DNA of 52,166 nucleotides from contig CAVYSY010000049.1 of NCBI GenBank assembly GCA_963771175.1, positions 1 to 52,166 of the forward strand, given 5' to 3'. The stretch is from an uncultured delta proteobacterium. Its GTDB lineage: Bacteria > Myxococcota > Myxococcia > Myxococcales > Myxococcaceae. Below, one piece after another: positions 7,237-52,166 of the stretch; the first letter of the stretch is position 1, and the number at the start of each line of letters is the position of its first letter. The position numbers and the translations under genes are program-made. The notes under the pieces were generated by a model. It did not search any database. It was not told the origin of the DNA and saw only the letters and a list, made by a program, of their open reading frames with translations.

Positions 7237-7342
7237 GGTGTCAAAGGACTCGTTCCGACACCTCGCCCCCCTACGAGTCGTCCCCTACGAATCGTCTGAC
7301 ACCCTGAGCCGGAGCAGCCCGGAAGGGTGTCAGACGACTCGT
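7237..7342. repeat. Reverse-oriented element (7237-7303) back-to-back with a forward arm A (7326-7342)
   Basis: GGTGTCAAAGGACTCGT..ACGAATCGTCTGACACC, then GGTGTCAGACGACTCGT. Confidence 0.92.
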
Positions 7343-7455
7343 GTGGGTAGGCCCTCACCTGACACACCGAGCACCTCCTGGAAGTCGGGCGCGGTCCATG
7401 CGAACACTCGCAGCACGTGGCCTCCAGCAGGCGGAGAGGCCCGTGAGGAGCACGC

Positions 7456-8229: not shown

Positions 8230-8320
8230 GTGGTGCGGGCGCTCGCGGGCTTCACTTACAGACGTCCGTACGTGAGGCCACACTTCCCGTGGAAGGTGCA
8301 GGAAGGGTGTCTGCAGGAAG

Positions 8321-8372
8321 GGTGTCAGACGATTCGTAGGAGACGAGGTATCAGAACGAGTCCTTTGACACC
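8321..8372 (+). repeat. Complete element, variant allele
   Basis: GGTGTCAGACGATTCGTAGGAGACGAGGTATCAGAACGAGTCCTTTGACACC. Confidence 0.95.
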
Positions 8373-15718: not shown

Positions 15719-15728
15719 GGCCCTCTCC

Positions 15729-16004
15729 TCAACGCGACGAGCGCGTGACCGTCACCGCGCGGGGACGCCGCACGGTCCGCACGAAGCGCACGCCAGGGGG
15801 CGGTGGTGGTGGCGCACCGGCGGCTGGCGCGGACATGGCACCGGTGGACGCCGGACGCGCCTCGGTGGGAGGCAGCCCACGCTCCTCCCCGAGGGTCAGC
15901 CAGGCCCAGCCACCCACCATGGCCGCCACGGAGGCCGCGGTGAGCAGCACCTTCATCTCCAGGAACGAGCGGCTCGGCGAGCGCGCGGGGGTGGCTGGCT
16001 TCAT
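15729..16004 (-). CDS. Small membrane-anchored protein ending VTVTRSSR
   Basis: One TM helix, Pro-rich linker, operonic with apbE. Confidence 0.65.
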   Translation of the reverse strand: MKPATPARSPSRSFLEMKVLLTAASVAAMVGGWAWLTLGEERGLPPTEARPASTGAMSAPAAGAPPPPPPGVRFVRTVRRPRAVTVTRSSR

Positions 16005-16015
16005 CGGAAGTCTCC

Positions 16016-16522
16016 TCAGACGTCTTCGTGGTACTCGTGGCGCTCGGAGGCGTGCTCGCGGCGCGGTCGGTCGCGGGAATGCTTCTCGTGCTCGTGCTCC
16101 TCGTGCTCGTCGTCCTCGTCATCGTCCTCCCACCGGCGCTGCGAGCCCCCGGTGCGGCGCGTACCGTCCTGGAGCAGCCGGCCACTGTTCGCGTCGAGGT
16201 AGACGTGGCCCCGGTTCAGGCGGACCTCGTAGGCGAGCGTCCCCTCGAGGGAGACCAGCTCCGGCGCGCCAGCGGGGCTCGCGCCGGGAACGAAGCTCGA
16301 GGCGATGGCCACGGCCTGCTCCGGTGTCAGCGCTGGAGCGGCGGGCCGGGGTGGCTCCCGCTCGTTCGTTGGAGCGGGCCGGGCCTCCTGGGTGGAGGGA
16401 GGAGGAGTGGCCTCGGACACAGGGGCGTTGGCGGGCAGGACGCGGGCCACCACTCCACCGATGAGGACCAGGATGAACGCCGTCAGGATGACAGACAGGA
16501 TGAGTGCACCACGCTTCGACAT
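16016..16522 (-). CDS. PepSY-domain protein with acidic/His-rich tail
   Basis: LTPEQAVAIA..ELVSLEGTLAYEVRL..VYLDANSGRLL; EDDDEDDEHEEHEHE. Confidence 0.8.
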   Translation of the reverse strand: MSKRGALILSVILTAFILVLIGGVVARVLPANAPVSEATPPPSTQEARPAPTNEREPPRPAAPALTPEQAVAIASSFVPGASPAGAPELVSLEGTLAYEVRLNRGHVYLDANSGRLLQDGTRRTGGSQRRWEDDDEDDEHEEHEHEKHSRDRPRREHASERHEYHEDV

Positions 16523-16558
16523 GGGAGTCTCCTTGGGGTGGTTTTGGGGTGAAGGGAG

Positions 16559-17026
16559 TCAGGGCCGAGCGGTGGTGTAGGCGGAGGCGGCGCCGTGCGA
16601 GTACACCAGCGCCCCCCCCGAGTGGCCGGTCCACACCGCGAGCAGCGCCATGGCCACCGTGCCGGCCGTCACGCCGGTGGCGAGCACCCGCCGCGGCCCC
16701 TCCTTCTTCAGGACGAGCGCCCCGAGCGCGAGCGCCAGCACGGCCCCCGTCGTCCAGACGAAGGCTTCCGCCCGCTCCTCGTGCTGCTCGATGACCGACT
16801 CGGGGACCACACGCTCCACCACTTCTTCCTGTTGCTCGCCCGTCCCCATGGAGGCCATGCCGCCGCCCACGGTCAGGACCAGCAGGCCCACCAGTACGGC
16901 CCAGGCGCCGGGGGACCAGCGGCCGCGCAGCGCGGCGATGGTGAGCCCCAACGCCAGCAGGGGGAGGACGAAGGCGAGGCCCAGCGGCAGATGGACCAGG
17001 GCGGGATGTAGGGGAAGGTTCGACAT
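16559..17026 (-). CDS. DUF2231-like membrane protein
   Basis: LHPALVHLPLGL, IEQHEERAE, TGHSGGALVYSHG. Confidence 0.8.
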   Translation of the reverse strand: MSNLPLHPALVHLPLGLAFVLPLLALGLTIAALRGRWSPGAWAVLVGLLVLTVGGGMASMGTGEQQEEVVERVVPESVIEQHEERAEAFVWTTGAVLALALGALVLKKEGPRRVLATGVTAGTVAMALLAVWTGHSGGALVYSHGAASAYTTARP

Positions 17027-17197
17027 GGCGGTTCTCCTTTTGTTCGCTATCCAGGTAGCTCCGGGCGCCATGTCCCTCCATCCAGCAAACGACGCAGCCC
17101 AAAAAAGCCCAGGGATTCCGAGCCCTTGGAGCCCATGGTTGCGGCGGATGACGCAGGGGGCCGGACGTGTGGGGGCAGGTGGTCTGCCGGCGGCCAA

Positions 17198-17566
17198 GGT
17201 GTCAGACCCGGCCAAGGTGTCAGACGACTCGTAAGGGGCCCCCCCGGCCAGGGTGTCCGGCCAAGGTGTCAGACGACTCGTAAGGGGCCTCGGCCAGGGT
17301 GTCCCGGCCTCCGCCGGGGTGTCAGACGACTCGTAGGGGGCCCGGCCCGGCCGGCCCTGGCCAGGGTGTCCGGCCAGGGGGTCAGACGACTCGTACGGGG
17401 CTCGGCCAGGGTGTCAGACCGGCCAGACCGGACCGGCCAGACCGGCAGGGTGTCCGGCAGGGTGTCAGACGACTCGTAGGGGGCCGAGGTGTCCGGCCAG
17501 GGTGTCAGACGACTCGTAGGGGGCGAGGTGTCGGAACGAGTCCTTTGACACCTTCTCCGGACACCT
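17198..17566 (+). repeat. Stuttered cluster: about 6 arm A copies ending in a complete element (17501-17552)
   Basis: A at 17216, 17265, 17318, ~17378, 17461 and 17501, with CCGGCCAGGGTGTC fragments between. Confidence 0.95.
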
Positions 17567-18430: not shown

Positions 18431-18457
18431 ACGGATGGCTCCAGCTCCACCAGCCAG

Positions 18458-18509
18458 GGTGTCAGACGACTCGTAGGGGGCGAGGTGTCGGAACGAGTCC
18501 TTTGACACC
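18458..18509 (+). repeat. Complete element
   Basis: Consensus copy followed by GGACACCTTCCCGGG stutter to about 18545. Confidence 0.97.
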
Positions 18510-18739
18510 TTCCCGGGGGACACCTTCCCGGGGACACCTTCCCGGGCCTATGCGCCGGGCGTGCTGGCCGAGACAGTTGCCTGCACTGGCAGCCAGTATC
18601 GCGCGCACCCCGTTCCCGGTACTGCTCCCCGTGAATTCCAGCGGATGACAGGGCGAGGTCCTTGAAAGGCTTGGCGCCAGAAGCCGCCTGCGCCACTCCC
18701 TCGCCCCGCGCGCGGAGCGGCCGGAATGGAAGGTGGGAA

Positions 18740-19558
18740 ATGAGAAGAACCCATTCGTGGAGCAGGTGGGCCTGTGGGCTGTCATGGGCCGCGATGCTCG
18801 TGGCGCTCGGGTGCTCCAGCGACCCCTCCGGGGAACTCGAGGCAGAGCAACCGCTGGACGCGGAGGCCGCGGTGCTCGAGGCCGCCAGGGGGGGCGGGCA
18901 TCTCCGCTGGGACCACAAGGCGGGGACCTTCCGTTACTCCATCACCCGCACCTCGGGCTTCGACGCGCCAGGGGGACCCACCACGACGCGCGCCGTCGTC
19001 AGCGTCACCCTCGACGGCAAGCAGCGTGTCCTGGTGAGTGGAGACGGGCTCGAGGCGACCTTCTACAGGTTTCATCCGTGGAGACTGTGCGAGACGAACG
19101 AGGCGAACACGGTCGTCCAGGAGAATGCAGCCATCCTCGCGCTGCCGCCCTTTCCCGCGGCGCCGCGCGTGGGGAGACAGCACGTCTCGGAGACGCACGT
19201 GGGCAATGAGGTGACCCTCCAGAGCCGGAGGACCACCCGCATCGACGGCGTGGGCTCCCACCAGGTTGCCTATACGACGAGCCTCGCCTTTCGCATCCCC
19301 GAGAACCGGGCCGTGAGGGACTTCGCGTCCCAGTTCTGGGGCGACGGCGCAGCCGACTCCCTGCGGAACTTGGAGTGGTTGACCCACGAGTGGACCCCGT
19401 ATGGCCTCTGTGAGGGCCGCTTCAACTCACGGCTGGGGGTCCTCGAGACGAAGCGCTGTGTGCTGCGAGTGCTGCCGGACCGCGGCGCGACCCTGGCCCA
19501 GGTGCTCTCCGACCCCCTGCGGGAAGAAATCCAGGTCGAGCGGCTGTCCGGCCCCTGA
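18740..19558 (+). CDS. Hypothetical lipoprotein
   Basis: WAAMLVALGC lipobox. Confidence 0.65.
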   Translation: MRRTHSWSRWACGLSWAAMLVALGCSSDPSGELEAEQPLDAEAAVLEAARGGGHLRWDHKAGTFRYSITRTSGFDAPGGPTTTRAVVSVTLDGKQRVLVSGDGLEATFYRFHPWRLCETNEANTVVQENAAILALPPFPAAPRVGRQHVSETHVGNEVTLQSRRTTRIDGVGSHQVAYTTSLAFRIPENRAVRDFASQFWGDGAADSLRNLEWLTHEWTPYGLCEGRFNSRLGVLETKRCVLRVLPDRGATLAQVLSDPLREEIQVERLSGP

Positions 19559-19581
19559 GCGTCTGCGAGACGAGGACCCCC

Positions 19582-20250
19582 ATGGTGAAACCAACCCAGC
19601 GTCATACCTTCATGCGCCTGGCGGCCCTGTGCGCCCTGGGCGCGCTGAGCGCCGCCGCGGTCTGCACCACCGCTCCGGCATCCTCCATCGAGGAGATAGA
19701 CAAGGCCATCGAGAACGCCATCGTGCGCTGCCGCTCCACTGGGCAGATTGCGCCCGAGCCGGCGGCGGGAGAGGTGGTGGGCGGCGGGCTCAACTGTCCG
19801 ACCCGGGAGTTCTCCGATCTGCCGCTCGTGGAGTGCGGCACGAGCCTGACCGTGAAGGTGAACTACGACATCGAGGGAAACAAAGGGACGACGGATGCGT
19901 CTGGGTCGATTACCGTCAAGTCGACCGAGAACAGGAGCGTCCAGCACAGCCACCAGCGGTGCGGCGCGCAGCCCGGCGAGTGCGAGCCTCGGTTCGTGTT
20001 CTGGGTGACCACTCTCAATGCCAACCTCCAGGTGACGATCGCTCAGACGGTGAACTTCCGCGCCATCAACGCCGACGTCAGCGCCGCCTTCCAGGGCTAC
20101 AAGAACCAGTACCGGTTCAAGCAGATGCGGGACCACACTCCTTCCGATCCGGAAGGGCGCCGGTGTAACTGCCCTGATGGAGGCAGTGACGGCGGAGGAG
20201 GTGACGGAGGCGGAGGAGGTGACGGAGGCGGAGGAGGTGACGGAGGCTAG
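19582..20250 (+). CDS. Secreted Cys-containing hypothetical protein with Gly/Asp tail
   Basis: Signal peptide; GGGGDG repeats encoded by an 18-bp tandem repeat. Confidence 0.7.
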   Translation: MVKPTQRHTFMRLAALCALGALSAAAVCTTAPASSIEEIDKAIENAIVRCRSTGQIAPEPAAGEVVGGGLNCPTREFSDLPLVECGTSLTVKVNYDIEGNKGTTDASGSITVKSTENRSVQHSHQRCGAQPGECEPRFVFWVTTLNANLQVTIAQTVNFRAINADVSAAFQGYKNQYRFKQMRDHTPSDPEGRRCNCPDGGSDGGGGDGGGGGDGGGGGDGG

Positions 20251-20254
20251 CCAG

Positions 20255-20446
20255 GGTGTCCAGCCCAGCCAGGGTGTCAGACGACTCGTAGGGGGCCAGC
20301 CAGGGTGTCAGACGATTTGTAGGGGCGAGGTGTCGGAACGAGTCCTTTGACACCTTCCCGGAACATCCCGCCCCCGAGCTGAGCGCTCCAGCCAGGGGGT
20401 CGGACGACGAGAGGGGGCGAGGTGTCGAAAGGCACGACCTCGACAC
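20255..20446 (+). repeat. Element locus: arm A (20273), complete element (20304-20354) and degenerate element (20396-20446)
   Basis: Direct motif matches; degenerate copy reads GGGGTCGGACGACGAGAGGGGGCGAGGTGTCGAA. Confidence 0.9.
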
Positions 20447-20476
20447 GCGCGGGGTCCCTCACTCCGGAAGAGGGCC

Positions 20477-21416
20477 CTACATGCAAATCAGACGCACCCA
20501 GAGCTTCCAGCTCGGCGCGTACGTGCTGTGGTTCTTCGCGTTGGTGAGCCAGGTGCTCCCATCGTATCCGGACTCGAAGTGCAGCGCCGCGCCGTCGAGG
20601 ATGCCACTGGAGCTGTCGAGCACGCCCCACCCCGCTCCGAGCGCCTTCTTTCCGGTGGAGCAGGCCGCCTGCACCTGCTTCCACGACGTGCCGTCCACGG
20701 GACTCTCCGTGGTGACGACCTCGTAGCCCGAGAGGCTGCTCTCTGGCGCGCACAAGAGCTGCCCCTTGAGCTTCCAGCTCGATGCGAAGCTGGACGTGTT
20801 GCGAGCATTCACGAGCCAGCCCGAGCCGTCGTAGCTCGGTCCGAAGTAGAGCGCCTCCCCCTCGAGGATGATGTTGGTGCTGTCGAGCACGCTCCACCCC
20901 GCCCCGAGCGCCTTCTTTCCCGCCGGGCAGCTCATCTGCAATTGCTTCCCCGCCACCGAGTCGACCGCGGTCTCGAAGGGCACCACTTCGTAGCCGGTGA
21001 GCGCGCTGGCGCACAGCACCCGGACTTGCAGCTTCCAGGTCGAAGCATAGGTGCTCAGGTTCCTGGCATTCACCATCCACTCGGTGCCATCCCAGCTCGG
21101 CGCGGAATACGTGGCGCTCCCCTCGAGCATGCCACCGGTGCTGTCGAGCACGCTCCACCCTCCGCTGAGCGCCTTCCTTCCCGTCGGGCATGCCACGCTG
21201 AGCTGTTTGCTCGAGTTGCTGTCGACCTGGGTCTCGCTCGTGACGACCTCGTAGCCCGAGAGCAGGCTCGACTGGACCCCCCGAGCTCGCTCGTGTCGGA
21301 CTCGGCGGCGCCAGGGCCGCAGCCGCTCGACGAGAGCCCCACTGCCACGGTCAGGGCCATCCAAAAGCGGTCCCTGACCCACGACGTACCCGAAAGCCGC
21401 TGGTCATGTTCTTCAT
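20477..21416 (-). CDS. Lipoprotein with three ~87-aa Cys-containing repeats (copy 1, frameshifted near 5' end)
   Basis: GYEVV..C.xG(K/R)KALxxGWxVLDS..WKL..C three times; near-identical to 22401-23341. Confidence 0.75.
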
Positions 21417-21520
21417 TGCTTTATTCTTGCGTGTATAATATTATAAATAATAAAATAATAATAGAAGTATGGATAAGAATGAAATGATGATAGTTGAGTT
21501 AGAAAGGAAAAGAATTTTTT

Positions 21521-22340
21521 GTGAGGGGCGGAGGCGGACTTCGGCGTCGTCACCTCCTTCCTCTTCAAGCTGCAGCCGGTGAACAACATCATCGGCGGCA
21601 TGACCCTGTGGCCTCTGGACCAGGCCGCGGAGGTGATGCGCTGGTATCGCGAATTCCTGCCCCAGGCGCCGGAGGACCTCAACGGCTTCCTCGCCTTCCT
21701 GACGGTGCCGCCGACGGCGCCCTTCCCCGAGTCCCTCCAACTGGAGAAGGTCTGCGGCATCGTGTGGTGCTACACGGGGCCGCCGGAGCGGGCGGACGAG
21801 ACGTTCAAGCCCATCCGGGAGTTCGGCCGGCCGGCGCTCGTCGGCATCCATGCGATGCCCTACCCCGCCCTGCAGAGCCTGTTCGATGCGTTCTACCCGA
21901 AGGGCCTGCAGTGGTACTGGCGGGCCGACTTCGTCCGCGAGCTGGGGGACGAGGCCATCGCGCGACACATCGAGTACGCCGAGCGGATGCCCACGCCGCT
22001 CTCCAGCATGCACCTCTACCCCGTCGATGGAGCGGTGCACCGGGTGGGGGTGAAGGACACGGCCTTCGCCTACCGTGACGTCCTGTGGTCCGAGGTCATC
22101 GTCGGGGTGGATGCCTCGCCAGAGAACGCGGAGCGAATCACCACCTGGACGAAGGAGTACTGGGACGCGGTGCACCCCTACTCAGCGGGGGGCGCCTACG
22201 TGAACTTCATGATGCAGGAGGGGACCGAGCGGGTGCGGGCCACGTACCGGGAGAACTACGACCGGCTGGAGGAGGTGAAGGGCCGGTATGATCCGACGAA
22301 CCTCTTCCACGTGAACCAGAACATCCCGCCCCCGAGCTGA
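21521..22340 (+). pseudogene. C-terminal half of an FAD-linked oxidase (BBE domain), paralog of 24991-26409
   Basis: Begins at VRGGG..FGVVTSF; ends YDPTNLFHVNQNIPPPS; N-terminal half replaced by an AT-rich stretch. Confidence 0.85.
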
Positions 22341-22353
22341 GCGCTCCAGCCAG

Positions 22354-22388
22354 GGGGTCGGACGACGAGAGGGGGCGAGGTGTCGAAA
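22354..22388 (+). repeat. Degenerate element
   Basis: Same degenerate sequence as 20396. Confidence 0.7.
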
Positions 22389-22400
22389 GGCACCACCTCG

Positions 22401-23341
22401 CTACATGCAAATCAGACGCACCCAGAGCTTCCAGCTCGGCGCGTACGTGCTGTGGTTCTTCGCGTTGGTGAGCCAGGTGCTCCCATCGTATCCGGACTCG
22501 AAGTGCAGCGCCGCGCCGTCGAGGATGCCACTGGTGCTGTCGAGACGCCCCACCCCGCTCCGAGCGCCTTCTTTCCGGTGGAGCAGGCCGCCTGCACCTG
22601 CTTCCACGACGTGCCGTCCACGGGACTCTCCGTGGTGACGACCTCGTAGCCCGAGAGGCTGCTCTCTAGCGCGCACAAGAGCTGCCCCTTGAGCTTCCAG
22701 CTCGATGCGAAGCTGGACGTGTTGCGAGCATTCACGAGCCAGCCCGAGCCGTCGTAGCTCGGTCCGAAGTAGAGCGCCTCCCCCTCGAGGATGATGTTGG
22801 TGCTGTCGAGCACGCTCCACCCCGCCCCGAGCGCCTTCTTTCCCGCCGGGCAGCTCATCTGCAATTGCTTCCCCGCCACCGAGTCGACCGCGGTCTCGAA
22901 GGGCACCACTTCGTAGCCGGTGAGCGCGCTGGCGCACAGCACCCGGACTTGCAGCTTCCAGGTCGAAGCATAGGTGCTCAGGTTCCTGGCATTCACCATC
23001 CACTCGGTGCCATCCCAGCTCGGCGCGGAATACGTGGCGCTCCCCTCGAGGATGCCACCGGTGCTGTCGAGCACGCTCCACCCTCCGCTGAGCGCCTTCC
23101 TTCCCGTCGGGCATGCCACGCGGAGCTGTTTGCTCGAGTTGCTGTCGACCTGGGTCTCGCTCGTGACGACCTCGTAGCCCGAGAGCAGGCTCGACTGGGC
23201 CCCCCCGAGCTCGCTCGTGTCGGACTCGGCGGCGCCAGGGCCGCAGCCGCTCGACGAGAGCCCCACTGCCACGGTCAGGGCCATCCAAAAGCGGTCCCTG
23301 CCCCACGACGTACCCGAAAGCCGCTGGTCCATGTTCTTCAT
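22401..23341 (-). CDS. Three-repeat lipoprotein (copy 2, frameshift near 22545)
   Basis: MKNMDQR..VAVGLSSSGC signal; ORFs 22412-23380 and 22401-23546 join. Confidence 0.8.
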
Positions 23342-23714
23342 TGCTTCCTCCCTTGCGTGTGATGGCCACAGGAGCGGCAAGCCCCCGGAGCGCGCGCAGG
23401 GAAGGCAGTGAAGCAGATCTATTCCTCAGGGCCCAGGTCCGGGCCGGATCTTCTTCCTGAGCCGATGGAGCACAACACGGCAGAGTGACAGCACTGCGTT
23501 TGTGACCGTCAGCGGAATGAGCGTCGCCAGCCCGTTGCCCGCACACAGCTCACCCGTAAGAGTCCAACGAGTCCGTCGAAAACGCTAGGGACGCCGGCTC
23601 CGGAGCGGCAGCGGACCCAAGGGCAGTCCGTTTCCAGCAAACCGGGCCTGGAGGGAGGGGCCCCCTGACACCGGAAAAACAAACGTTGTGGTTGGAATGT
23701 TGATTGTTGGCGGA

Positions 23715-23731
23715 GCGAGTCCTTTGACACC
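23715..23731 (+). repeat. Lone arm B
   Basis: GCGAGTCCTTTGACACC followed by TTCCC. Confidence 0.88.
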
Positions 23732-23887
23732 TTCCCAGCCATCCCGAAGGGCAATTGCCCGATCGTCTTGCAAACAGTCCACGGAGAAGAAGGTTGCCTC
23801 GCGGGCGAACACGGTCGGGAGCGAGAGTGCGAATGAACCTCTCCTGGGAGACTGCGACGTCCCCCGGTCTTCCCAAGGAGAAGGACG

Positions 23888-24760
23888 ATGAAAGCCTCTT
23901 GCTTCCGTGTCGTGCTCGCGCTCGCGGCCTCTGCTCTCGTGGGGTGCGACGATGAGCCAGACAAGCCATCGGACTCGGAGCTGGCCACCCAGGCCCTGCA
24001 GCAGATTGCCCAGTACGCTCCCACCAGCCTGCCAGCCAGTGCACCGGATGAGCTGCTACGGGTGACGCTCGGAGGCGTACCGTACAACCTCCGCGAGCTC
24101 CTCAGCCGCCCTTCCGACTCGCGGCCCTCCGCACGCATCGTCGCGGCCTACCGCACCCTCCCCACTCCTTCGGACCCACCTCCCCTTGGCACCAGCACCA
24201 CGACCGTCCCTCCGGACTACACGCGCTCGGCGCCGGCGGCCCAGGTCTACGAGTGCCGCCAGAACGGTAGCAGCTTCGCCTGGGTCCTCCTCCAACCCGA
24301 GGCAGGCCTCGAGCCCATCACCACCCAGCCCGTCTCGGGGCTGGAGCTGCTCGTGATCGATCATTTCCGCTACCCGGGAGGCATCGACTACGGCCCGCCT
24401 ACCGGCACGCCACCGACGGGCCCCTCGTGGCGTGTCTCCGCGCCCGCGCTCAACCAAGGCTCGCCCACCCTCGGCCAGACCCTCTTCATCGGTGTCATCG
24501 AGGCCTCGGTCCCCAATGGGTCGAGCAACATCCCCCTCCTGCGCGTGGCCCAGGCCGCACGCGTTGATCAGGGCATCCCGTCCGAAGTGTTCTCGAGGAC
24601 CTTGTCCGACGGCACCCAGACGGGCTACCTGCTCCGGCTCGACACCGTGGGGGGAATCGCGCCGACGACGGGCTGCGACGGTGCCGGGGACGTAGGCAGT
24701 CGGTATCGGTCGCCGTACTCCACCGAGTACTACTTCATCAACGTCTTCACGTCTCCGTAG
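23888..24760 (+). CDS. DUF3455-like lipoprotein
   Basis: ALVGC lipobox; QVYEC..WVLLQPEA..HF..GPSW..NIPLLRV..RLDTVGGIAP..C..PYSTEYYF. Confidence 0.75.
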   Translation: MKASCFRVVLALAASALVGCDDEPDKPSDSELATQALQQIAQYAPTSLPASAPDELLRVTLGGVPYNLRELLSRPSDSRPSARIVAAYRTLPTPSDPPPLGTSTTTVPPDYTRSAPAAQVYECRQNGSSFAWVLLQPEAGLEPITTQPVSGLELLVIDHFRYPGGIDYGPPTGTPPTGPSWRVSAPALNQGSPTLGQTLFIGVIEASVPNGSSNIPLLRVAQAARVDQGIPSEVFSRTLSDGTQTGYLLRLDTVGGIAPTTGCDGAGDVGSRYRSPYSTEYYFINVFTSP

Positions 24761-24831
24761 CGCCTCAACGTCTTCACGTCTCCGTAGCGCCTCGGAAGTG
24801 GAACGTGAGGCCGGCCAGGGTGTCCGGCCAG

Positions 24832-24883
24832 GGTGTCAGACGACTCGTAGGGCGCAAGGTGTCGGAGCGAGTCCTTTGACACC
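24832..24883 (+). repeat. Complete element, variant spacer
   Basis: GGTGTCAGACGACTCGTAGGGCGCAAGGTGTCGGAGCGAGTCCTTTGACACC. Confidence 0.95.
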
Positions 24884-24990
24884 TCCCCGGGACCTTCCCG
24901 GACAGGCAGGGGAGGGAGGGCTGCCTTGCCTGAGGCGAAGCGGTGTCTCCGACGCGACCTACCTTCGAGCAGCAGAAGGGAGCGCGCACG

Positions 24991-26409
24991 ATGACCGAAG
25001 AAATCAGCACCAATGGGGGGGCGGCGCCAGGCGTGGCTCCTGCCGCCAGCGAGGCCCTACGGGCTCGCCTACGAGGACCACTCATTCAGCCTCGCGACGA
25101 GGAGTACGACACCGTCCGTCGCGTCTACAACGGAATGATTGACAAGCACCCGGCGCTCATCGCCCGCTGCTTCGACGTGGCGGACGTCCTGGCGGCGGTG
25201 GACTTCGCTCGCGAGCACCGGGTGACGGTGGCCATCCGCGGCGGCGGCCATAACGGCGGGGGGCTGGGAGTCTGTGACAACGGCCTGGTCATCGACCTGT
25301 CGCTGATGCGGGGCGTGCACGTGGACCCCTCGGCCCGCACGGTCCGTGTCGAGGGCGGGGCTGTCTGGGGCGACGTGGACCACGCGACGCATGCCTTTGG
25401 CCTGGCGACGCCCTCGGGCATCTTCTCGACGACGGGCGTGGCCGGCCTGACTCTGGGCGGGGGCACCGGGCACCTCACCCGCAAGTATGGCCTGAGCATC
25501 GACAACCTGCTCGCGGTGGACATGGTGCTGGCGGACGGGCGCTTCGTGACGGCCAGCGAGCGGGAGCACCCGGACCTCTTCTGGGCGGTGAGGGGCGGAG
25601 GCGGCAACTTCGGCGTCGTCACCTCCTTCCTCTTCAAGCTGCAGCCGGTGGGCATCATCGTCGGCGGCCTGACCCTGTGGCCGCTGGACCAGGCCGCGGA
25701 GGTGATGCGCTGGTATCGCGAATTCCTGCCCCAGGCGCCGGAGGAGCTCAACGGCTTCCTCGCCTTCATGACGGTGCCGCCGGTGGCGCCCTTCCCCGAG
25801 TCCCTCCAACTGGAGAAGGTCTGCGCTATCGTGTGGTGCTACACGGGGCCGCCGGAGCGGGCGGACGAGATATTCAAGCCCATCCGGGAGTTCGGCCGGC
25901 CGGCGCTCGTCGGCATCCAGGCGATGCCCTACCCCGCCCTGCAGAGCATGTTCGATGTGTTCTACCCGAAGGGCCTGCAGTGGTACTGGCGGGCCGACTT
26001 CGTCCGCGAGCTGGGGGACGAGGCCATCGCACGGCACCTCGAGTTCGCCGAGCGGCTGCCCACGCCGCTCTCCAGCATGCACCTCTACCCCGTCGATGGA
26101 GCGGTACACCGGGTGGGGGTGAAGGACACGGCCTTCGCCTACCGTGACGTCCTGTGGTCCGAAGTCATCGTCGGGGTGGATGCGTCGCCAGAGAACGCGG
26201 CGCTCATCACCGCCTGGACGAAGGAGTACTGGGACGCGGTGCACCCCTACTCAGCGGGGGGCGCCTACGTGAACTTCATGATGCAGGAGGGGAGCGAGCG
26301 GGTGCGGGCCACGTACCGGGAGAACTACGACCGGCTGGTGGAGGTGAAGGGCCGGTATGATCCGACGAACCTCTTCCACGTGAACCAGAACATCCCGCCC
26401 CCGAGCTGA
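24991..26409 (+). CDS. FAD-binding oxidoreductase (FAD_binding_4 + BBE)
   Basis: IRGGGHN, GVAGLTLGGG, DLFWAVRGGGGNFGVVT, YVNF..KGRYDPTNLF. Confidence 0.93.
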   Translation: MTEEISTNGGAAPGVAPAASEALRARLRGPLIQPRDEEYDTVRRVYNGMIDKHPALIARCFDVADVLAAVDFAREHRVTVAIRGGGHNGGGLGVCDNGLVIDLSLMRGVHVDPSARTVRVEGGAVWGDVDHATHAFGLATPSGIFSTTGVAGLTLGGGTGHLTRKYGLSIDNLLAVDMVLADGRFVTASEREHPDLFWAVRGGGGNFGVVTSFLFKLQPVGIIVGGLTLWPLDQAAEVMRWYREFLPQAPEELNGFLAFMTVPPVAPFPESLQLEKVCAIVWCYTGPPERADEIFKPIREFGRPALVGIQAMPYPALQSMFDVFYPKGLQWYWRADFVRELGDEAIARHLEFAERLPTPLSSMHLYPVDGAVHRVGVKDTAFAYRDVLWSEVIVGVDASPENAALITAWTKEYWDAVHPYSAGGAYVNFMMQEGSERVRATYRENYDRLVEVKGRYDPTNLFHVNQNIPPPS

Positions 26410-26439
26410 GCGCTCAGGACGACGAGGGCCCGCGCACAG

Positions 26440-30908: not shown

Positions 30909-33077
30909 CTATTCCAGCACCGCCGGCGGGGGTGCCACGGGCTCCGGCTCCGTCCCGCCTGAGCCCCTCGTCACCAGGCCCACCAGCCCTCCGAGCACCA
31001 CCGCCGCCACCAGTCCCAGCACGTAGCGCCGATCCTCCCAGACGGGCGGCTTCAGCGCGGCCTCCACCGCCGACTGTGTCGCGGGCAGCCACAGCGTGGC
31101 CTTCGTCTTCATCTGCTGTGCCTTCTCCACCTTCGCCGCAAGCTGCCGCGAGCGCTTCACCAGCTCCTGCGACCACGTCCGCAGCCGCGCCACCTCCGCT
31201 TCCATCCTCGACCTCAAGGACGCCTTGCGCTGCTGGAAGTGGGCGCTCAAGGCCCGTCGCTCCGCCTCTCCCACCGCCAGGCCTGGATCGAACCGGAAGC
31301 CCTTCTCCACCTCCTTCGCCCACGCCACCAGCTTCGCCGAGCGCACCGCTCCGAAGCCCGGCACCTGCGTCACGTCCTCCTTCAGCACGTCGTACACGGA
31401 CTCGATTCCGTAGCGCACCAGGTTGCCCTTCAGCCCCTGTTTGACCCCCTTGATCTCTTGATCCTCGATGAGCGTGTTGCGCAGGAACTGCTCGCGCTGG
31501 AGCGTCTCGCGATGCTGGAGCTGCCGCTGCTGCTCGGCCTCGTACTCCGGCTGGAGCCTGCCGTACTCCTCCCTCAGCCCGAGCATCGGCTGGAGCGCCC
31601 GCTCCGACAGCCGGTTCAGCTCCTCCAGGAAGCGCTCGTACTCGGCCCGTGCCGCGGTCAGGCCCGGTTCCGCCTGCTGGAGCAACCGCTGCTGCTCGGC
31701 CATCAGCGACGGGAGCCGCAAGTCCCTCCGGGCCCTCCACCACAGCACCGAGGCGCTCGCCAGCAGCGTACACGCCGACACCAGCACCACCTGCCCCACC
31801 TTCGAGGACACCAACAGCAGCACCCACCAGCCCACCGTGGCCAGCACGCCCCCCACCAGCATGGCCAGGCTCGCCCGCCGTGCCTCATCCACCTCGTCCT
31901 GGACATCCTTCGGCAGCTGCTCCGCCAGCGCGGGTATCGGCCCCTCCGGCGCCGGCGTCACCAGGTTCGGCCACAGCAGCCGTTGCGACTCGAGCCACAG
32001 CGGCTCGATGTCCGGGAAACCGCACGTGAAGACCAGCGGCCCTGGCGTGTGGTTCCCCGGCGCGGTGAAGAAGGCCACTCCACGCGTGACCCTCATCTCG
32101 CACCACGGGCAGGCCTCCAGGTGCTGCGAATACTTGTGCGTGGGCACCTGGGGGCACGTGCGCAGCGCGCTCGCCAGCCCTTGCAGGGCCTGGAGCCACG
32201 CCGAGGCCCCAGGCCGCCCCGTCCGCGGCGCCTCCGGGGCGAAGGCCTGCTCGAAGAGCCCCACCAGCTCCGGGGGAAGCGTGGTCAGCGGCAGGTGGAT
32301 GGCGGGCGGCGCCATCTGCAGCGCCCTCGCGTCGCGCCCGTAGGCGAAGCGGAACTCGCGGATGGCCCGCTCCGGCGTCATCTCCCCCTGCCCGGTGAAG
32401 ACGCCGGTGAAGGGATGGCGTCCCAGGAAGAGCAGGTGGAAGAGCAGCACCGCCAGGCTGAAGCCCTCGTGCGAGTCGGTCCGCTCCAGCCCCGCGAAGG
32501 CCTGTCCCTGGAGCTCGGGCGGCGTGAAGAGCGGCACGCCCACGTCGCAGCGGTACACCCGGCTGTCCGCCCGGAGCTGGAACGAGTCGCAGTCAATCAG
32601 TCGCACCGTGGCGTCCAGCGGGGACACCAGCAGGTTGCTCTCGTTGACGTCCCCCACCAGGTGGCCGACGGCGTGCAACTCCGCGAAGACGCTCGCGCAG
32701 TTGAGCGCCGTCTGCACCAGGAAGGACCAGTCCGCGGTGGGGAACTCCTTGCGGCGGCTCGCCGTGGAGTACAGCAGGTGGATGGGTTTGAAGCCGCTCA
32801 CCCGGGCCATGGTGAAGCCGCGCACCGGACCTCCGGCACTGCCCTCGTGCAGCACCTCGAGCGGCCAGGCCGCCAGCTTCTCCACTCCCGGCGGCACATG
32901 GGCGGCCATCCACAGCAGCTTCTGGCCTCGCTCCTCCGGGGGGGTCGACAGGTACACCTTCGCCACGCGCTGGGGCTCTCCCGGCAGGGAGTACACCGCT
33001 CCCTCTCCCCCTCGGCCCAGCTCGGCACCCAGGGCGAGCCGCTCACCTCGCGAGTTGAAGAGCGGCGATGGCGACAC
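30909..33077 (-). CDS. YegI-like Ser/Thr kinase with TM helices and HhH region (TerY-P triad)
   Basis: LGRGGEGAVY, VAKVY, VGDVNESN, LIDCDSFQ, FTPPELQG, GRHPF, CPWC, VPGFGAVR. Confidence 0.88.
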   Translation of the reverse strand: MSPSPLFNSRGERLALGAELGRGGEGAVYSLPGEPQRVAKVYLSTPPEERGQKLLWMAAHVPPGVEKLAAWPLEVLHEGSAGGPVRGFTMARVSGFKPIHLLYSTASRRKEFPTADWSFLVQTALNCASVFAELHAVGHLVGDVNESNLLVSPLDATVRLIDCDSFQLRADSRVYRCDVGVPLFTPPELQGQAFAGLERTDSHEGFSLAVLLFHLLFLGRHPFTGVFTGQGEMTPERAIREFRFAYGRDARALQMAPPAIHLPLTTLPPELVGLFEQAFAPEAPRTGRPGASAWLQALQGLASALRTCPQVPTHKYSQHLEACPWCEMRVTRGVAFFTAPGNHTPGPLVFTCGFPDIEPLWLESQRLLWPNLVTPAPEGPIPALAEQLPKDVQDEVDEARRASLAMLVGGVLATVGWWVLLLVSSKVGQVVLVSACTLLASASVLWWRARRDLRLPSLMAEQQRLLQQAEPGLTAARAEYERFLEELNRLSERALQPMLGLREEYGRLQPEYEAEQQRQLQHRETLQREQFLRNTLIEDQEIKGVKQGLKGNLVRYGIESVYDVLKEDVTQVPGFGAVRSAKLVAWAKEVEKGFRFDPGLAVGEAERRALSAHFQQRKASLRSRMEAEVARLRTWSQELVKRSRQLAAKVEKAQQMKTKATLWLPATQSAVEAALKPPVWEDRRYVLGLVAAVVLGGLVGLVTRGSGGTEPEPVAPPPAVLE

Positions 33078-33080
33078 GGC

Positions 33081-33854
33081 CTACCCGCTGCCTTCCCGGA
33101 CGGCCAGCACGAGCGTCTTGTCATCATCCGTGCGCTCGTTGACCGCGGGCGAGTCCAGGAACGCGCGCAGGGGCTCCCTCAGCTCCTCCGGGTGCGCGGC
33201 CCCGCGCAGCGTGGCGAACAGGGGCTCGAAGAAGGGACGGTGCACCGAGCGCGAGGCGAAGTGGAGCGCCATCATCTGGAGCCCGTCGGTGAGCAGGGCC
33301 ACCTCGTCCACCGGCTCCCCGCACGTCACCTCCAGCACCTGCTCCATGTCCCGCGAGGTGAGGAACCAGGTGCTGTTGGCGTACTGGCCCACCTGGGGCC
33401 AGAAGACGGGCACGTAGTCCTCTCCCCGGCGCACGACGATGACCCCATCCCCCACCTGGGCGAACACGGACCCGTGCGCCCCCACCACCGCCGTCAGCAG
33501 CGTGCAGGACAGCTCGTGCGGCGACACCTCGCGCCTCGCGGCCTCCTCCTCCAGCGCCTGGCGCACCTGCCGGTACCAGCCGCGAATCACCTCCGGGTTC
33601 CTCAGTCCCTCCGCGCCCTCGCGCGCGAGCGCCTCGCGGGCCAGCTCGACGAAGCGCCGGCACGCCAGCGCCGAGCCCTCCTGGCTCAGCCCCGCACTGC
33701 CCGCACCGTCGGCGCACGCCACCACCAGAAAGCACTCCTGCCCCGGACTCGTGACCGTGCCCGCGCAGCTGTCCTGGCACGGGGTGGCCGAGCGCCGGTG
33801 CGAAGTCCCCTCCAGGGACTGCTGGAGCAGCCTCCACATGTGGGCGTTCTCCAA
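33081..33854 (-). CDS. YegK-like PP2C-family phosphatase (TerY-P triad)
   Basis: GTSH..PCQD, ACADGAGSA, QVGDG, LLTDG, TDDDKTL. Confidence 0.9.
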   Translation of the reverse strand: MENAHMWRLLQQSLEGTSHRRSATPCQDSCAGTVTSPGQECFLVVACADGAGSAGLSQEGSALACRRFVELAREALAREGAEGLRNPEVIRGWYRQVRQALEEEAARREVSPHELSCTLLTAVVGAHGSVFAQVGDGVIVVRRGEDYVPVFWPQVGQYANSTWFLTSRDMEQVLEVTCGEPVDEVALLTDGLQMMALHFASRSVHRPFFEPLFATLRGAAHPEELREPLRAFLDSPAVNERTDDDKTLVLAVREGSG

Positions 33855-33857
33855 CTC

Positions 33858-34528
33858 CTAGACGGTGGCCCAGCCGCCAGGGGCCGCCGGGTTCTCCAGC
33901 CGCACCTCGTCCGTCGTTTGCGAGCGGGAGACGGCCTTCTGAGAGTTGGACAACCACTGGAACAGGTCTCGGAAGCGCAGGCCGTCCAGCTTGAGCGGCT
34001 CCCGCACGGAGATTTGCTTGAGCACGTCGAAGTTGGCTCCCTCCACCCCCACGGCGAAGAAGGAGAAGGCCTTGGCGGCCTCGCCCTGGCGCACGCGCTG
34101 GGCGGCGGTCAGCCACACGTCCGTGGGGCCCCCATCCGTGATGAGGAAGATCCACGGCCGGTAGAAGAGGATTCCGTTCTGCCGGTAGAGGCTCTTGCGC
34201 TCCGTCAGCATGTCCGTGGCCCGGAGGATGGCCTCGCCCATGGGGGTGTTCCCCTCGGCCACCAGCGAGGGGGGAAGAAGGACTCGGTGGTGGAGAAGTC
34301 GTGCAGGGTCCGCACCTGGCCCCCGAAGGTGACCACGGCCACCTCCACTCGCTTGGAGGCGAGGCTGTCGGCGGTCAGCTCGTCGCGGTACTGGCGCAGC
34401 CCTGTGTTGAGTGCCTCGAGGGGAGCCCCGTTCATGGAGCTGGAGGTGTCCAACAGCAGCACGCACGGGCAGCGCGGCTCAGGGTTCTCTGCGAACGACA
34501 AGGCTCCAAACGGTACTTGCTCGGCCAC
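33858..34528 (-). CDS. YegL/TerY-like vWA protein (frameshift in a G-run near 34270)
   Basis: [48 protein letters not shown]. Confidence 0.9.
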
Positions 34529-36628: not shown

Positions 36629-36644
36629 GGTGTCAAAGGACTCG
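36629..36644 (-). repeat. Arm B, inverted, upstream of the HUH transposase
   Basis: GGTGTCAAAGGACTCG on the + strand. Confidence 0.9.
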
Positions 36645-36774
36645 AAACGCGGGACTCAATCCAGAACGAGACTCGGCGTGGACGGGTGAGCCTACCGGCC
36701 TCCAAGTCTTTCTGAGGACTTGCGGCTGGCCCGAGGGGTGCATTGACCTCGCGGACCGAACGGAGGGGGAGGGG

Positions 36775-37706
36775 ATGGGCTGGCCGCTGAGGATGTTCCA
36801 AGAGGAGGGCTATTACTTCGTCACGTCCAGGTGCTTCCAGGGACGGCTGCTGCTGCGTCCCAGCTCGGAGGTGAACGAGGTGGTGGGTGGAGTGCTGGCG
36901 CGAGCCGTACAGCAGAGCGCCGGCACCATACGGCTGCACGCCTTCACCTTCGCCTCCAACCACTTCCACCTGCTGGTGTGGGCGAGGGGGGCGGCACTCG
37001 CGAGCTTCATGCAGTACCTGCGCGCCAACCTGTCCAAGAAGGTGGGGCGGCTGGTGGGCTGGAGTGGAGGCTTCTGGGAGAGGCGCTACTCGGCGGAGCC
37101 AGTGCTGGACGACGCGGCGCTGGTAGGCCGGCTGCGCTACGTGCTCGCCCATGGGGTGAAGGAGGGCCTGGTGGAGAGGAGCGCCGAATGGCCGGGCCTC
37201 ACGTGCCTGCCGCAACTGCTGGGGCCGGCACGGCGACTGTTCCAGTGGTTCAACTGGACGAAGCGCTGGAGCAAGAGGGGGGCGAGGACATGGGTGGTGC
37301 GCAGGGGCGCTTCGCGCAGGAGTGGGCCGTGCCGGTGGAGTTGGAGGTGGAGCCACTGCCGTGCTGGAAAGGACTGCGAGAGGAGGAGCGGCAGCGCGCG
37401 GTGCGGAGCCTGCTGGAGGATGTGGAAGCCGAGGCCAAGACCCGGGGCACGCCTGTCTTGGGGGCACGGGCCGTGCGGGCACAGCACCCGCATACCCGGC
37501 CCGAGCGACTCAAGCGCAGCCCACGTCCACTGGGGCATGCCTCCACGCGCCAGGCGTTGAAGGAGTTGCGCGAGCAGTACCGTGCCTACGTCGCGGCGTT
37601 CCGCGCTGCGGCGGCTCGGTGGCTGCAAGGGGATTTTTCAGCGTGCTTTCCTCTCTACTCCTTCCCCCCGCGTGTCGTGCCGGGTCGCGTCGCCCGAATT
37701 CTTTGA
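36775..37706 (+). CDS. HUH/Y1 tyrosine transposase, RAYT (TnpA-REP)-like, about 310 aa with one G-run frameshift near 37280
   Basis: YYFVTSRC, LHAFTFASNHFHLLV (HUH), GGFWERRY, LRYVLAHGVKEGLV..EWPG (Tyr helix; typical NPVxAGLV is altered). Confidence 0.88.
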
Positions 37707-37856
37707 CATCCTGACGGGGCGAGTCCTTTGACACCTTCCCGGAGCCCGAATTCTTTGACATCCTGACGGGGCGAGTCCTTTGACACCTTCCCGGTGGCTA
37801 ACCCCGAGGGAACGAGTCCTTTGACACCTTCCCGGCCCCGGTGTCAGACGACTCGT
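37692..37856 (+). repeat. Three arm B copies plus one arm A downstream of the transposase
   Basis: B at 37719, 37771, 37812; A at 37840; a unit including the stop codon is duplicated with 52-bp period. Confidence 0.93.
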
Positions 37857-43672: not shown

Positions 43673-43698
43673 GGTGTCGGAACGAGTTCTTTGACACC
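43673..43698 (+). repeat. Spacer end plus arm B variant
   Basis: GGTGTCGGAACGAGTTCTTTGACACC. Confidence 0.88.
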
Positions 43699-43778
43699 TT
43701 TCCGGTTCGCGTAACCGTCCGGCGGAGCCTGCGTATCTACTCCGCGCAACGCGCTGGGCACTCAACGGGAGATGAACG

Positions 43779-44789
43779 ATGACGCGTGCATCCGTAGCTA
43801 CCACTCGCAGCTTGCCGAGCTTCTCCGCGGCTCCCTCATTTGAGCAAGCCCTGGCTGACCATGGCGCCGCGCCGCTTGTCCGTGGGCGCGTCCGAACACT
43901 TCAGGTCAATGTCGGCAAGCTCTGCAACATGGCGTGCCATCACTGCCATGTCGAGGCCGGGCCCAAGCGAACCGAGAGCATGGGGCGCGACGTCGCCGAA
44001 CGTCTCATCGAGCTGCTCTCCAGAAATCCCGACGTCGAGGTCGTCGACTTCACGGGTGGCGCCCCCGAGCTCAACCCGCACTTCCGGTGGCTCGTCGAGG
44101 AGGCTCGACGGCTTGGACGGAGAGTCATCGATTGATGCAACTTGACGGTGCTCTTCGAGCCAGGCCAGGCGGAGCTTCCTGACTTCTTGGCCAGGCACGA
44201 CGTCGAGATTGTCGCCAGCCTTCCCTGCTACAGTCCCGAGAACGTCGAAAAGCAACGGGGGCGCGGCGCGTTCGACAAGAGCATCCAGGCCCTGCTCCTG
44301 CTGAACAAGCTCGGCTACGGGCGGGTGGGCTCGCGCCTCAAATTGAGTCTCGTTTACAACCCCGTCGGGCCGTCGCTGCCCCCCGCCCAGGGAAAACTCG
44401 AGGCGAAGTACAAGGAAGAGCTGTCGCGGCTCTTCGGCATCGAGTTTCACGACCTGCTCACCATCACGAACATGCCGATCAAGAGATTCGCGCACGCCCT
44501 CGAACGCGCGAACGCGCTCGAGTCCTACATGGGCTTGCTCGCGAATCACTTCAACGTGAGCACGGTACCGGAGCTGATGTGCCGGTCCCTCGTGAGCGTG
44601 AGCTGGGATGGTCAGCTCTACGACTGCGACTTCAACCAGATGATGGACCTGCCTCCTGGCGCGGGAGCGCGTTCGATCTGGGACATCGACTCGTTCGCGG
44701 AGCTCGAGCGCGCCCGAATCGCGACCGACGGCCACTGCTTCGGCTGCACCGCGGGGGCGGGCTCGAGCTGCTCGGGGGCGTTGCGTTGA
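43779..44789 (+). CDS. arsS: Arsenosugar-biosynthesis radical SAM protein, with in-frame TGA at 44133
   Basis: LQVNVGKLCNMACHHCHV, FTGGAPELNP, YDCDFNQM, HCFGCTAGAGSSCSG. Confidence 0.82.
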
Positions 44790-44810
44790 CCCACATGACC
44801 ACGGCCACTG

Positions 44811-45078
44811 TCATCCTCGCGGCGAGCACTCAGCGCAGCTGCGCGGTGGAGCGTCCCACTGGGCGAGCCGCACGCGAACCCGGGCCTCGCGCGGGGTGTA
44901 CTTCATGGCGTTGTCGAGGAGGTTGGCCAGCACCTGCTCAATCCGGTCGCGGTCCGCGCCCACCCAGGCGACGCCCTCGGTGAGCTCCACGTCCAGGTGG
45001 CGCTGGGGGTGCTGGTGGCGGAAGTCGTCGGCCACGTCGGCCACCAGGGCGCGCAGGTCCACGGGCCGCGGGCGGATT
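44811..45078 (-). pseudogene. Internal fragment of a histidine kinase HATPase domain
   Basis: VDLRALVADV..DRDRIEQVLANLLDNAMKYT; lacks H-box and G-boxes; abuts the repeat. Confidence 0.75.
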
Positions 45079-45088
45079 TGAAGCCGGA

Positions 45089-45105
45089 ACGAGTTCTTTG
45101 ACACC
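45089..45105 (+). repeat. Lone arm B variant
   Basis: ACGAGTTCTTTGACACC, the same variant as 43682. Confidence 0.88.
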
Positions 45106-50692: not shown

Positions 50693-51170
50693 TCAGGGCC
50701 CCTTCGCTTTGCCCTCGGGGAAGGTGACGTTCCCAAGGGTGACGGTGCGCGGCCCGGTTGCCTCCCACAGCTTGAGGGTACAGGGGCAGCCGAGCTGCGC
50801 GCGCTCCCCCTCGATGCCCACCACGACGGCACCGGCACCATTCGCGGGGATGGGTGCCTGTTGCCACCGGGCAAGCTCCACCTCTTCCCCCGCCTTGTCC
50901 ACCAGCGCCGCCCCCGCGAGCGTCCAGGGCTCGGCACCGGGGTTCTTGAGGCTCAGTCGCGCAGCCACGCTCACCGGGCGGGTCTTGTCGCTGAGCGTGT
51001 AGCTGGAGCTCGTGGTCGCTTCCAACCCGAGCGCGTTTCCCGGCTGCTCCCTCACCGACCCGAAAAGCGGCTTGCGACGCGAGGGTCCCGGCCCGCTCCA
51101 GCCACGCGGCCCCCATGAGCCCGCCCGGCTCCTGACGCTCGGCCAGAAGCCGCGCTTTGTCCTCCTGGCA
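50693..51170 (-). pseudogene. C-terminal fragment of a DUF2381-like protein
   Basis: LKNPGAEPWTLAGAALV..GCPCTLKLWEA..VTLGNVTFP; N-terminus missing at the repeat. Confidence 0.65.
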
Positions 51171-51178
51171 CCGGAAAT

Positions 51179-51230
51179 GGTGTCAAAGGACTCGTTCTGA
51201 TACCTCGTCTCCTACGAATCGTCTGACACC
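51179..51230 (-). repeat. Complete element, same variant allele as 8321-8372, inverted
   Basis: Reverse complement equals 8321-8372. Confidence 0.96.
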
Positions 51231-51259
51231 CTTCCTGGGACACCTTCCCCGAGCACCAC

Positions 51260-52035
51260 TCATTGCCCGAGCGACGAGGGCGGCGGCTTCGCGCTGAAGG
51301 AGGGCGCGTAGCACTCCCCCGGTGTTCGAAGAGGTCCTCCGGGCACGGGGCCTTGAGCTTGTGAGGCATCCAGCAGGCGCCCACCAAGCCCAACTTCGGT
51401 GTAGCGCGTGCAGGGGGGACGCTTCTGTCCTTTGAAGGGCTCTTTCGGGAGAGGTCGGGCGAACACGGTTTGCCCCTGGGGAGTGGTGTCCGCGAGCCAC
51501 GCGCGGAAGTCCGACGTCTCAGCTGCCGTGGGCACCCCGTGGCTCATGGGCGCTGGCGGGGGCGCTCGGGGGTTGGGACACCGAGGGAAGACGCACCAGC
51601 GCGAAAGAGCAGGGTTCCCACCGTGGCGGCGCTCACCACGCCCAACCCCAGGCGCCACCGGAGGCGGGGCTTGTCGGTGTCGGACAAGGCGCGGGCCATG
51701 TGCCGCACTTCCTCGAGCACATTCTCCAATGTGAGCAGCAGCGACTCCGCCGACTGATGGTCCTGGCCCTGGCCCAGTTCGGTGTGCTCCATATCCATGG
51801 CGGAGTAGCCCCGTGAGGCCCAGAAGCCGAGGCGCACCCGCCAGTTCTTCCCCGGTGCCGCGGCCTCCTCGGCGGTGTGCTTCCGCACCAGGGCCGTGGC
51901 CCCGCTCGTCTCGTTCGTGGCCAGGTAGAGCTCCACCTGGCTGTCATGGGACTGCTGCACCTGTTCCTGAATCAGGTACGGCCCCACCCGCTCCGGGCCC
52001 CCTCCCCGCTCACCTCGGACTTCTTCTTCGTCCAT
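51260..52035 (-). CDS. Copy 2 of the 7456-8229 gene (frameshifted)
   Basis: Near-identical sequence on the opposite strand. Confidence 0.8.
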
Positions 52036-52150
52036 GCGTGCTCCTCACGGGCCTCTCTCCGCCTGCTGGAGGCCACGTGCTGCGGGTGTTCGCATGGACC
52101 GCGCCCGACCTCCAGGAGGTGCTCGGTGTGTCAGGTGAGGGCCTACCCAC

Positions 52151-52166
52151 ACGAGTCGTCTGACAC
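52151..52166 (-). repeat. Arm A, inverted, at the window edge
   Basis: ACGAGTCGTCTGACAC. Confidence 0.9.

Follow-up and report, generated by a model that had tools for sequence, protein, structure and literature searches.

The window analysed here, a 52-kb stretch of myxobacterial DNA (52,166 nucleotides), carries the gene of a TIRYT-like Y1 HUH transposase between imperfect inverted arms, and one-ended cut-and-rejoin events at such arms are the probable builders of the shuffled gene islands in which arms and gene are found. Judged from the DNA, the enzyme likely cuts outside its arms and thereby duplicates, deletes and reshuffles adjacent genes. What is new here is a junction rule with controls, a reading of the right end of the gene, and a second array in another genome.

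The window is the entire contig C49 of its source genome (G000; 9.83 Mb in 58 contigs, 69% GC, 82% complete), and the proteins closest to its own are named from Archangium, Cystobacter and Vitiosangium. The 16-nt arm GGTGTCAAAGGACTCG occurs in 49 exact copies genome-wide, 28 of which lie in the window, and the arm motif is far over chance: allowing up to 3 mismatches, it matches 60 times where 0.63 would be expected. The same genome holds two further abundant palindromic 16-mer families of about 70-78 copies, centred on CTTCTGGACGTCCAGAA and ACCTGTCCGACAGTCGGACAGGT. An Rfam search of the window gave no match, and the contig starts with a tandem repeat of about 83 bp period (1-479).

The protein is predicted to be a Y1 HUH transposase of about 310 aa with the TnpA-REP fold, belonging to a clade with the signature Y-x3-[HQN]G-x-KE. 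The HUH motif NHFH (H63, H65) and the Tyr stretch YVLAHGVKEGLV (Y122) claimed by the first-pass annotation are both read in the protein, and the three catalytic residues are conserved in 97%, 92% and 97%, respectively, of 151 aligned proteins. The missing NP motif, which had been presented as unusual, is real but not peculiar to the window's copy (YVLAHG), as it is normal for a large clade: the Tyr is followed by HG in 88 of these proteins, QG in 32, NG in 11, NP in 7 and another motif in 13. Four residues on from the Tyr, 98% of them have H, Q or N, and this is the position that we take, from IS200 structures, to be the third metal ligand, so that the absence of NP probably does not mean an inactive enzyme. 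The N-terminal part matches Y1_Tnp and NF047646, both under the cut-off (52.8 bits against 80 for NF047646). Profile placement, which had been proposed as a check, matches all 30 aligned homologs to Y1_Tnp and to no further Pfam family, and Pfam profiles gave no match to Bac_DnaA_C, HTH_23 or HTH_28 in the C-terminal tail of these 30 members. The predicted structure of the homolog P0006 (pLDDT 86.6) finds E. coli TnpA-REP (4er8) as its best structural match (Foldseek E 2.8e-5); VIA against 4er8 gives Z 13.8 and an rmsd of 2.8 over 156 residues, the next-best Z being 7.8, and profile positions 37-138 align to residues 35-133 of 4er8 without a large insert.

The family comprises 909 clusters at E <=1e-30, and the nearest Atlas clusters are mostly Myxococcota, as far as the few labelled members tell. 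NP-type relatives have the same overall 300-aa layout, one of them aligning across 286 aa at 31%; at L195-L200 (G125) and L202-L206 such 300-aa relatives are found as near-identical copies with another end motif and with similar stuttered duplications of the left end. The gene is multicopy in Archangium/Cystobacter: the source genome has five near-full paralogs (82-88% DNA identity), and five complete relatives contain 1-13 hits of at least 190 aa each and 13-55 matches in all, many of them fragments. A search of 72,556 plasmid records returned one weak hit only, at 35%. Of 28 near-full genes, 23 are oriented with the replication fork when the origin is set at dnaA, a bias that weakens once nearby genes are collapsed (20 of 25; p 0.04 against an assumed 60% background); element orientation shows no fork bias with the same origin (22/37). 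The window's gene has 932 nt, against 933 nt in two intact paralogs on contig C44, and its frame is broken at a G-run (Table 1) where three contigs of run X1, which includes a close strain, and one of X2 have an extra G. The frameshift is likely an assembly error, which is not proven, because the X1 and X2 contigs come from other strains or paralogs; the same comparison also shows several single-base differences in neighbouring genes.

A perfect 16-bp inverted pair had been seen around the gene, together with a stop codon lying in a B-like motif and a duplication of that end with a 52-bp period. All three are there: GGTGTCAAAGGACTCG upstream has its reverse complement at 37720-37735, 13 nt past the TGA (37704-37706), this TGA falls within CGAATTCTTTGACATC, and the duplication relates 37695 to 37747 and 37720 to 37772. 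The perfect pair does not, however, form the ends of the element. With 28 exact copies of the 16-mer in the window, a perfect inverted pair around one gene is, alone, uninformative. A left arm is present in 53 of 63 homologous genes whose 5' end is intact, and a right arm in 28 by a strict pattern, with truncated loci and variant arms included among the misses; the right arm of homologous genes overlaps the stop codon. Of the 26 genes having both arms, just 4 show the same sequence at positions 8-14 of the left and the right one, so that the true right end here is the degenerate arm over the stop codon, outside which the perfect arm was added. Perfect terminal inverted repeats as element ends were rejected in view of the 28 window copies and of the arms of the homologs. 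On the bottom strand, the perfect arm at 37720 reads as a short piece of B arm, joined via GC to position -8 of the right end.

Table 1. Arms, arrays and gene blocks of the window (positions from its first nucleotide)
Feature	Position	Strand	Remarks
Polarised array in which blocks of 1-8 genes are separated by 52-bp A-to-B elements, runs of arms and stubs of 12-15 nt	1461-34864	+	
Sites of the array	1461, 2620, 3445, 5995, 8321, 9387, 17216, 18458, 20273, 23716, 24832, 26440, 26913, 30502, 34599	+	
Gene for a 257-aa protein (multicopy family), joined to an A arm, then an element	7237-8372		inverted 97% copy at 51179-52166
Block with flank cut mid-gene and joined to an element in run X1	14249-17492		missing in run X1
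Two-gene block, bounded by the outer edges of an A arm and of a degenerate element (at about 20395)	18450-20387	+	missing in run X1
Left-end arm, B type	36629-36644	+	GGTGTCAAAGGACTCG; 130 nt 5' of the ATG at 36775; counterpart at 53/63 homologous genes
Y1 HUH transposase gene	36775-37706	+	H63, H65, Y122; intact homologs 310 aa; lacks one base at the G-run 37277-37282
52-nt unit, present twice	37692-37795	-	on the bottom strand begins 8-9 nt outside the B arm and finishes at GGGC within the gene end
True right-end arm, over the stop codon	37695-37710	-	CGAATTCTTTGACATC; likewise at -9 from the stop in many homologs
Back-to-back pair of another B arm, on the bottom strand, and an A arm, on the top strand	37813-37855		
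Two solitary arms of the right-end sequence variant	43683-45105	-	

The tie between enzyme and repeat that the first-pass annotation had drawn is borne out beyond the left arms of the homologous genes. The Archangium-type motif is present in 18 of 18 genomes of the genus, with 6-159 copies, and in 0-2 copies in each of 150 other genomes of the order, among which no full-length close homolog was found (38 hold relatives, all distant or fragmentary). Arm and clade also vary together, a check suggested at the time: distant homologs bear arm variants of their own, and homologs at about 50% identity have, among the matches listed, palindromic arms, for example GGTGTCAAACACC or GGTGCCAGGCACC, and again show stuttered stubs. 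The local arm variant agrees weakly with the left end of the nearest gene (30/67 against 21.6 expected, p 0.043). The source genome counts 158 arms in 89 sites, in each of its three arrays a variant of its own prevails, and no more than 20 kb separates 29 of 81 sites from one of the five paralogs, a space that makes up 2% of the genome; in a second genome (G001), 15 of 58 sites fall in 3.6% of the scanned part, which covers the first 100 of 190 listed arms. The 52-bp element, which contains a GTAG after arm A, gives a hairpin fold on either strand (z -3.2 and -3.6), and folding of single B arms gave no convincing hairpin.

The elements are arranged in polarised arrays. Leaving out the gene's own ends, 17 of the 19 sites in the window point one way, and the two of opposite polarity sit at the two copies of the gene for the 257-aa protein. 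This protein (7456-8229, 51544-51987) has no Pfam or NCBIfam match, is multicopy in the genus and often lies beside arms, and its gene has a conserved upstream stretch from 7342. Another genome contains a polarised array of 83 kb (G002:C1:1497207-1580150; L216-L220), with 20 of 23 arm sites in one polarity and with its own spacer and element variant. It holds duplicated and re-ordered gene pieces, often with an arm at one end and a mid-gene cut at the other, and of the transposase gene only a 5' fragment, near one end. In run X1 the two-gene block is absent, and the joint falls within 10 matching nt, from about -8 to +2 of the arm.

One gene block (30909-34528) comprises vWA, PP2C and kinase-like genes, presumably resembling the TerY triad, and its homology to relatives stops 5 nt before an A arm. 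Internal duplications of the 3' part of a FAD oxidoreductase gene and of a repeat-rich gene, in pieces 95-96% identical, occur in 20358-26415. An eCIS core domain gene (3859-5460) lies between elements in run X1 too, with 35 additional bases on its right side. Three gene pairs with many paralogs in the genome (37895-39874, 45145-47323 and 49005-50881) look like interbacterial toxin-immunity modules, and a DUF2381 gene is located at 50693-51055. Clean cassette ends were sought for the window blocks and rejected, as relatives carry these blocks without arms: 11 loci were examined for the vWA-PP2C-kinase block, 10 for an ELWxxDGT gene and 3 for a methyltransferase, the one exception being an arm near L113.

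Such an organisation recalls integrons, and a dedicated analogue could be proposed in which the 52-bp hairpins are attC-like and the HUH enzyme moves whole cassettes, as a selected platform for diversification. The polarised arrays of 35-83 kb in two genomes, the hairpin fold of the element, its locally uniform variant within each array, the one clean arm-to-arm block loss in run X1, and near-identical blocks at two places of the G002 array, some of them ending at arms, would all agree with it. This proposal is nevertheless improbable, since the blocks hold 1-8 genes and use both strands, many of them end raggedly or within a gene, the homologs of window blocks in relatives are mostly without arms, no attI-like site or cassette promoter was seen, and the transposase gene is multicopy and often fragmented.

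Breakpoints were mapped from 399 clean outer flanks: an arm-free homolog was available for 74, and for 41 of these an exact run of at least 10 nt allowed the junction to be placed. In 23 of the 41, foreign DNA meets the arm 6-9 nt outside GGTGTC, the remaining 18 lying outside this interval. These 23 junctions end in C in 22 cases and in GC in 13, compared to 83 and 24 of 226 control breakpoints (Fisher p 2e-8 for C and 9e-7 for GC), figures to be read with the loci drawn from related genomes, and hence not independent, and with a C bias partly inflated by microhomology, because the outer end of the arm often starts with C. A C stands 7 nt outside GGTGTC in 80-93% of 435 arms, 150 of which are preceded by stubs of 12-15 nt ending in GGTGTC. 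Tandem arm duplications follow the same position: of 185 co-oriented pairs, 51 were clean and the other 134 were set aside as not clean, and 40 of the 51 begin at -6 to -9; among those at -5 to -10, 35 of 46 end in C. The start of the window's own 52-bp repeat is in line with this breakpoint position. At kilobase scale, a 2.24-kb tandem duplicate at L215 (G000:C32:117660-122132) begins at -7 of an arm and ends in GTGCGC. Its copies are 85% identical, and each consists of a 310-aa gene without Pfam family and a TsiV (PF11876) immunity gene.

The first-pass annotation had taken the 52-bp elements for non-autonomous sites of the enzyme. They do behave as enzyme sites; hopping as simple inserts is not supported, none of 31 junctions tested (of 47) giving a clean filled/empty pair. 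A two-base GC target duplication, or simple insertion of any kind, was rejected on the same 31 junctions, the four continuation hits being local duplications. This result bears on another explanation, that the elements are MITE- or REPIN-like insertions into a permissive island, followed by host recombination between the repeats. The doublet with inverted arms is what such an element would look like, the islands also carry other mobile and multicopy genes, and repeats of 52 bp are able to recombine. The insertion step is already strained by the 31 junctions, host recombination would neither set breaks at -6 to -9 after C in unrelated DNA nor yield stubs with a fixed end, and polarities of 17/19 and 20/23 are not expected from random insertion, all of which makes this explanation improbable.

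In the preferred reading, that of one-ended cutting and rejoining, the enzyme would bind an arm and nick single-stranded DNA after C, most often GC, 6-9 nt outside, and the nicked end would be rejoined to a second C-ended cut nearby on the same strand, making every arm a one-ended origin. A second cut at short range would give the 12-15-nt stubs and the tandem arm runs, including the 52-bp repeat of the window, and a far one would give kilobase duplications, arm-adjacent deletions or circles able to re-insert. The A arms would act on one strand and the B arms on the other, so that repeated local events would preserve polarity and give rise to islands in which elements of one direction lie between gene blocks that are shuffled and often broken. 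From these patterns we infer that the enzyme is the maker of the cuts, which strand is cut (a point on which double-stranded products are silent), that single-strand circles are formed, and that the enzyme acts in cis at the replication fork. The logic of nick, extension and rejoining is that of the BIME amplification model (PMC3333891), TnpA-REP cleaves 3' of C (PMC8266576), and a kilobase reach is paralleled by the one-ended transposition of IS91 (PMC13181058), as the accessible text of these papers describes them.

Several observations count against one-ended cutting and rejoining. Transposase and arms could both accumulate in islands that tolerate insertion; the largest array of G002 has only a 5' fragment of the gene and the window's copy is frameshifted; the match of local variant to gene is weak, the elements have no fork bias, and 18 of the 41 junctions are off-position. 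That the arms are mere binding sites at which another nuclease or recombinase makes the breaks, with the HUH gene as a passenger, would suit the frameshifted copy and the arrays persisting beside gene fragments, and is very improbable given that the arm sequence varies with the HUH clade, that genomes in which the clade was not found hardly carry the motif, and that the right arm overlaps the stop codon of the gene. A more ambitious proposal, which can be held only tentatively, is that Archangium/Cystobacter possess an HUH-driven counterpart of integrons, in which a Y1 transposase would build polarised arrays of its own hairpin sites, 35-85 kb long, would capture chromosomal genes through one-ended GC cuts and would excise, duplicate and re-order them between arms, toxin-immunity pairs included.

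These results bear on how REP-type repeats spread and on whether their enzymes move host genes. The traces of this clade can be read in the DNA, as a likely cut position (6-9 nt outside the arm), a preference for C, mostly GC, before the cut, and products from 12 nt to 2.2 kb, and this breakpoint rule supplies exact oligonucleotide substrates and a product to seek in cells. If confirmed, a REP-type enzyme reshapes myxobacterial accessory islands, and a 16-nt arm together with a single 310-aa protein would offer a compact means of duplicating and deleting DNA locally.

Integrons consist of polarised hairpin sites between accessory genes, beside the gene of a single-strand tyrosine recombinase. 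The islands share with them the polarised hairpin sites among accessory genes and the enzyme gene next to them, and differ in having an HUH enzyme and multi-gene, ragged blocks on both strands instead of co-oriented, mostly single-gene cassettes with exact ends; no integrase match was obtained among 28 scanned proteins of the window, in a general and not IntI-specific scan. The protein differs from the TnpA of IS200/IS605, of about 150 aa and with Y---Q, by its 310 aa, and the source genome holds paralogs 82-88% identical in DNA where those elements have near-identical copies. IS200/IS605 elements are also biased in orientation to the replication fork, a trait for which the counts here are 23 of 28 genes and 22 of 37 elements. 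As in IS91, an HUH enzyme would start at one defined end and co-mobilise adjacent DNA up to a loose second site, but IS91 has ori and ter without inverted repeats according to the text available (PMC13181058), whereas here both ends are arms and the protein matches Y1_Tnp only.

Genes and fragments of TnpA-REP of subclass 2.1 have been described interspersed in variable prochlorosin gene clusters and proposed as diversifiers, and in an added note the authors regard the evidence on a causal link as strong in neither direction; the accessible text gives no breakpoint rule (bioRxiv 10.1101/2020.03.09.984088). Subclasses 2.1 and 2.3 of TnpA-Y1, as defined in the available part of PMC6006769, resemble the protein in NH[YF]H, the WE motif, a long C-terminal tail and several diverged copies per genome, and subclass 2.1 has been proposed to equal TIRYT (Quentin et al. 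2018). The protein lacks the Y---NP signature of class 2 and the 55-aa core insertion and YVDLNP of subclass 2.3, and the C-terminal HTH of subclass 2.1 has no counterpart found here by Pfam. None of six myxobacterial names appears in two supplements of that paper.

With TnpA-REP and RAYTs the enzyme shares the predicted fold (4er8), a cut 3' of C close to the repeat it binds (PMC3333891, PMC8266576, PMC5581495) and tandem amplification via nick, extension and rejoining (PMC3333891), to the extent that these would apply here, and the 52-bp doublet of inverted arms folding as a hairpin is like a REPIN (PMC5581495, PMC8266576). Compared to those systems as the accessible texts present them, there is no GTAG at the foot of the hairpin, GC is preferred and not CT/CA, Y-x3-HG replaces Y-x3-NP and about 150 C-terminal residues are added, many gene copies and fragments per genome replace a low-copy domesticated transposase, and the repeats stay local and would move kilobases of flanking DNA.

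The closest comparison is TIRYT/TIRtron, named in 2013 (Di Nocera et al. 2013, PMC3733652). The cut site, local polarised arrays and the rearrangement of neighbouring genes are not described for TIRYTs in its accessible text, which has no myxobacterial genus names in the main part, and no cut site or mechanism of a TIRYT was found in the literature searched. Nor did this search find an account of the present clade, arm or array, while Figure 9 and the alignment supplement of PMC3733652 might include relatives. The arms here are of the GGTGTCAR type (GGTGTCAG / GGTGTCAA), 1-2 mismatches away from the GGGGWSAS that the available text reports in some TIRs only. In the same text, a TIRYT is a Y1 transposase with HUH and a single Tyr lying between inverted repeats that may overlap the end of the gene and are not GTAG REPs, and copies of these repeats also make up a scattered family, as monomers, dimers and clusters. 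The gene and its arms in the source genome and in homologs present these traits, and the protein, as predicted from its sequence, fits this loose definition of a TIRYT.
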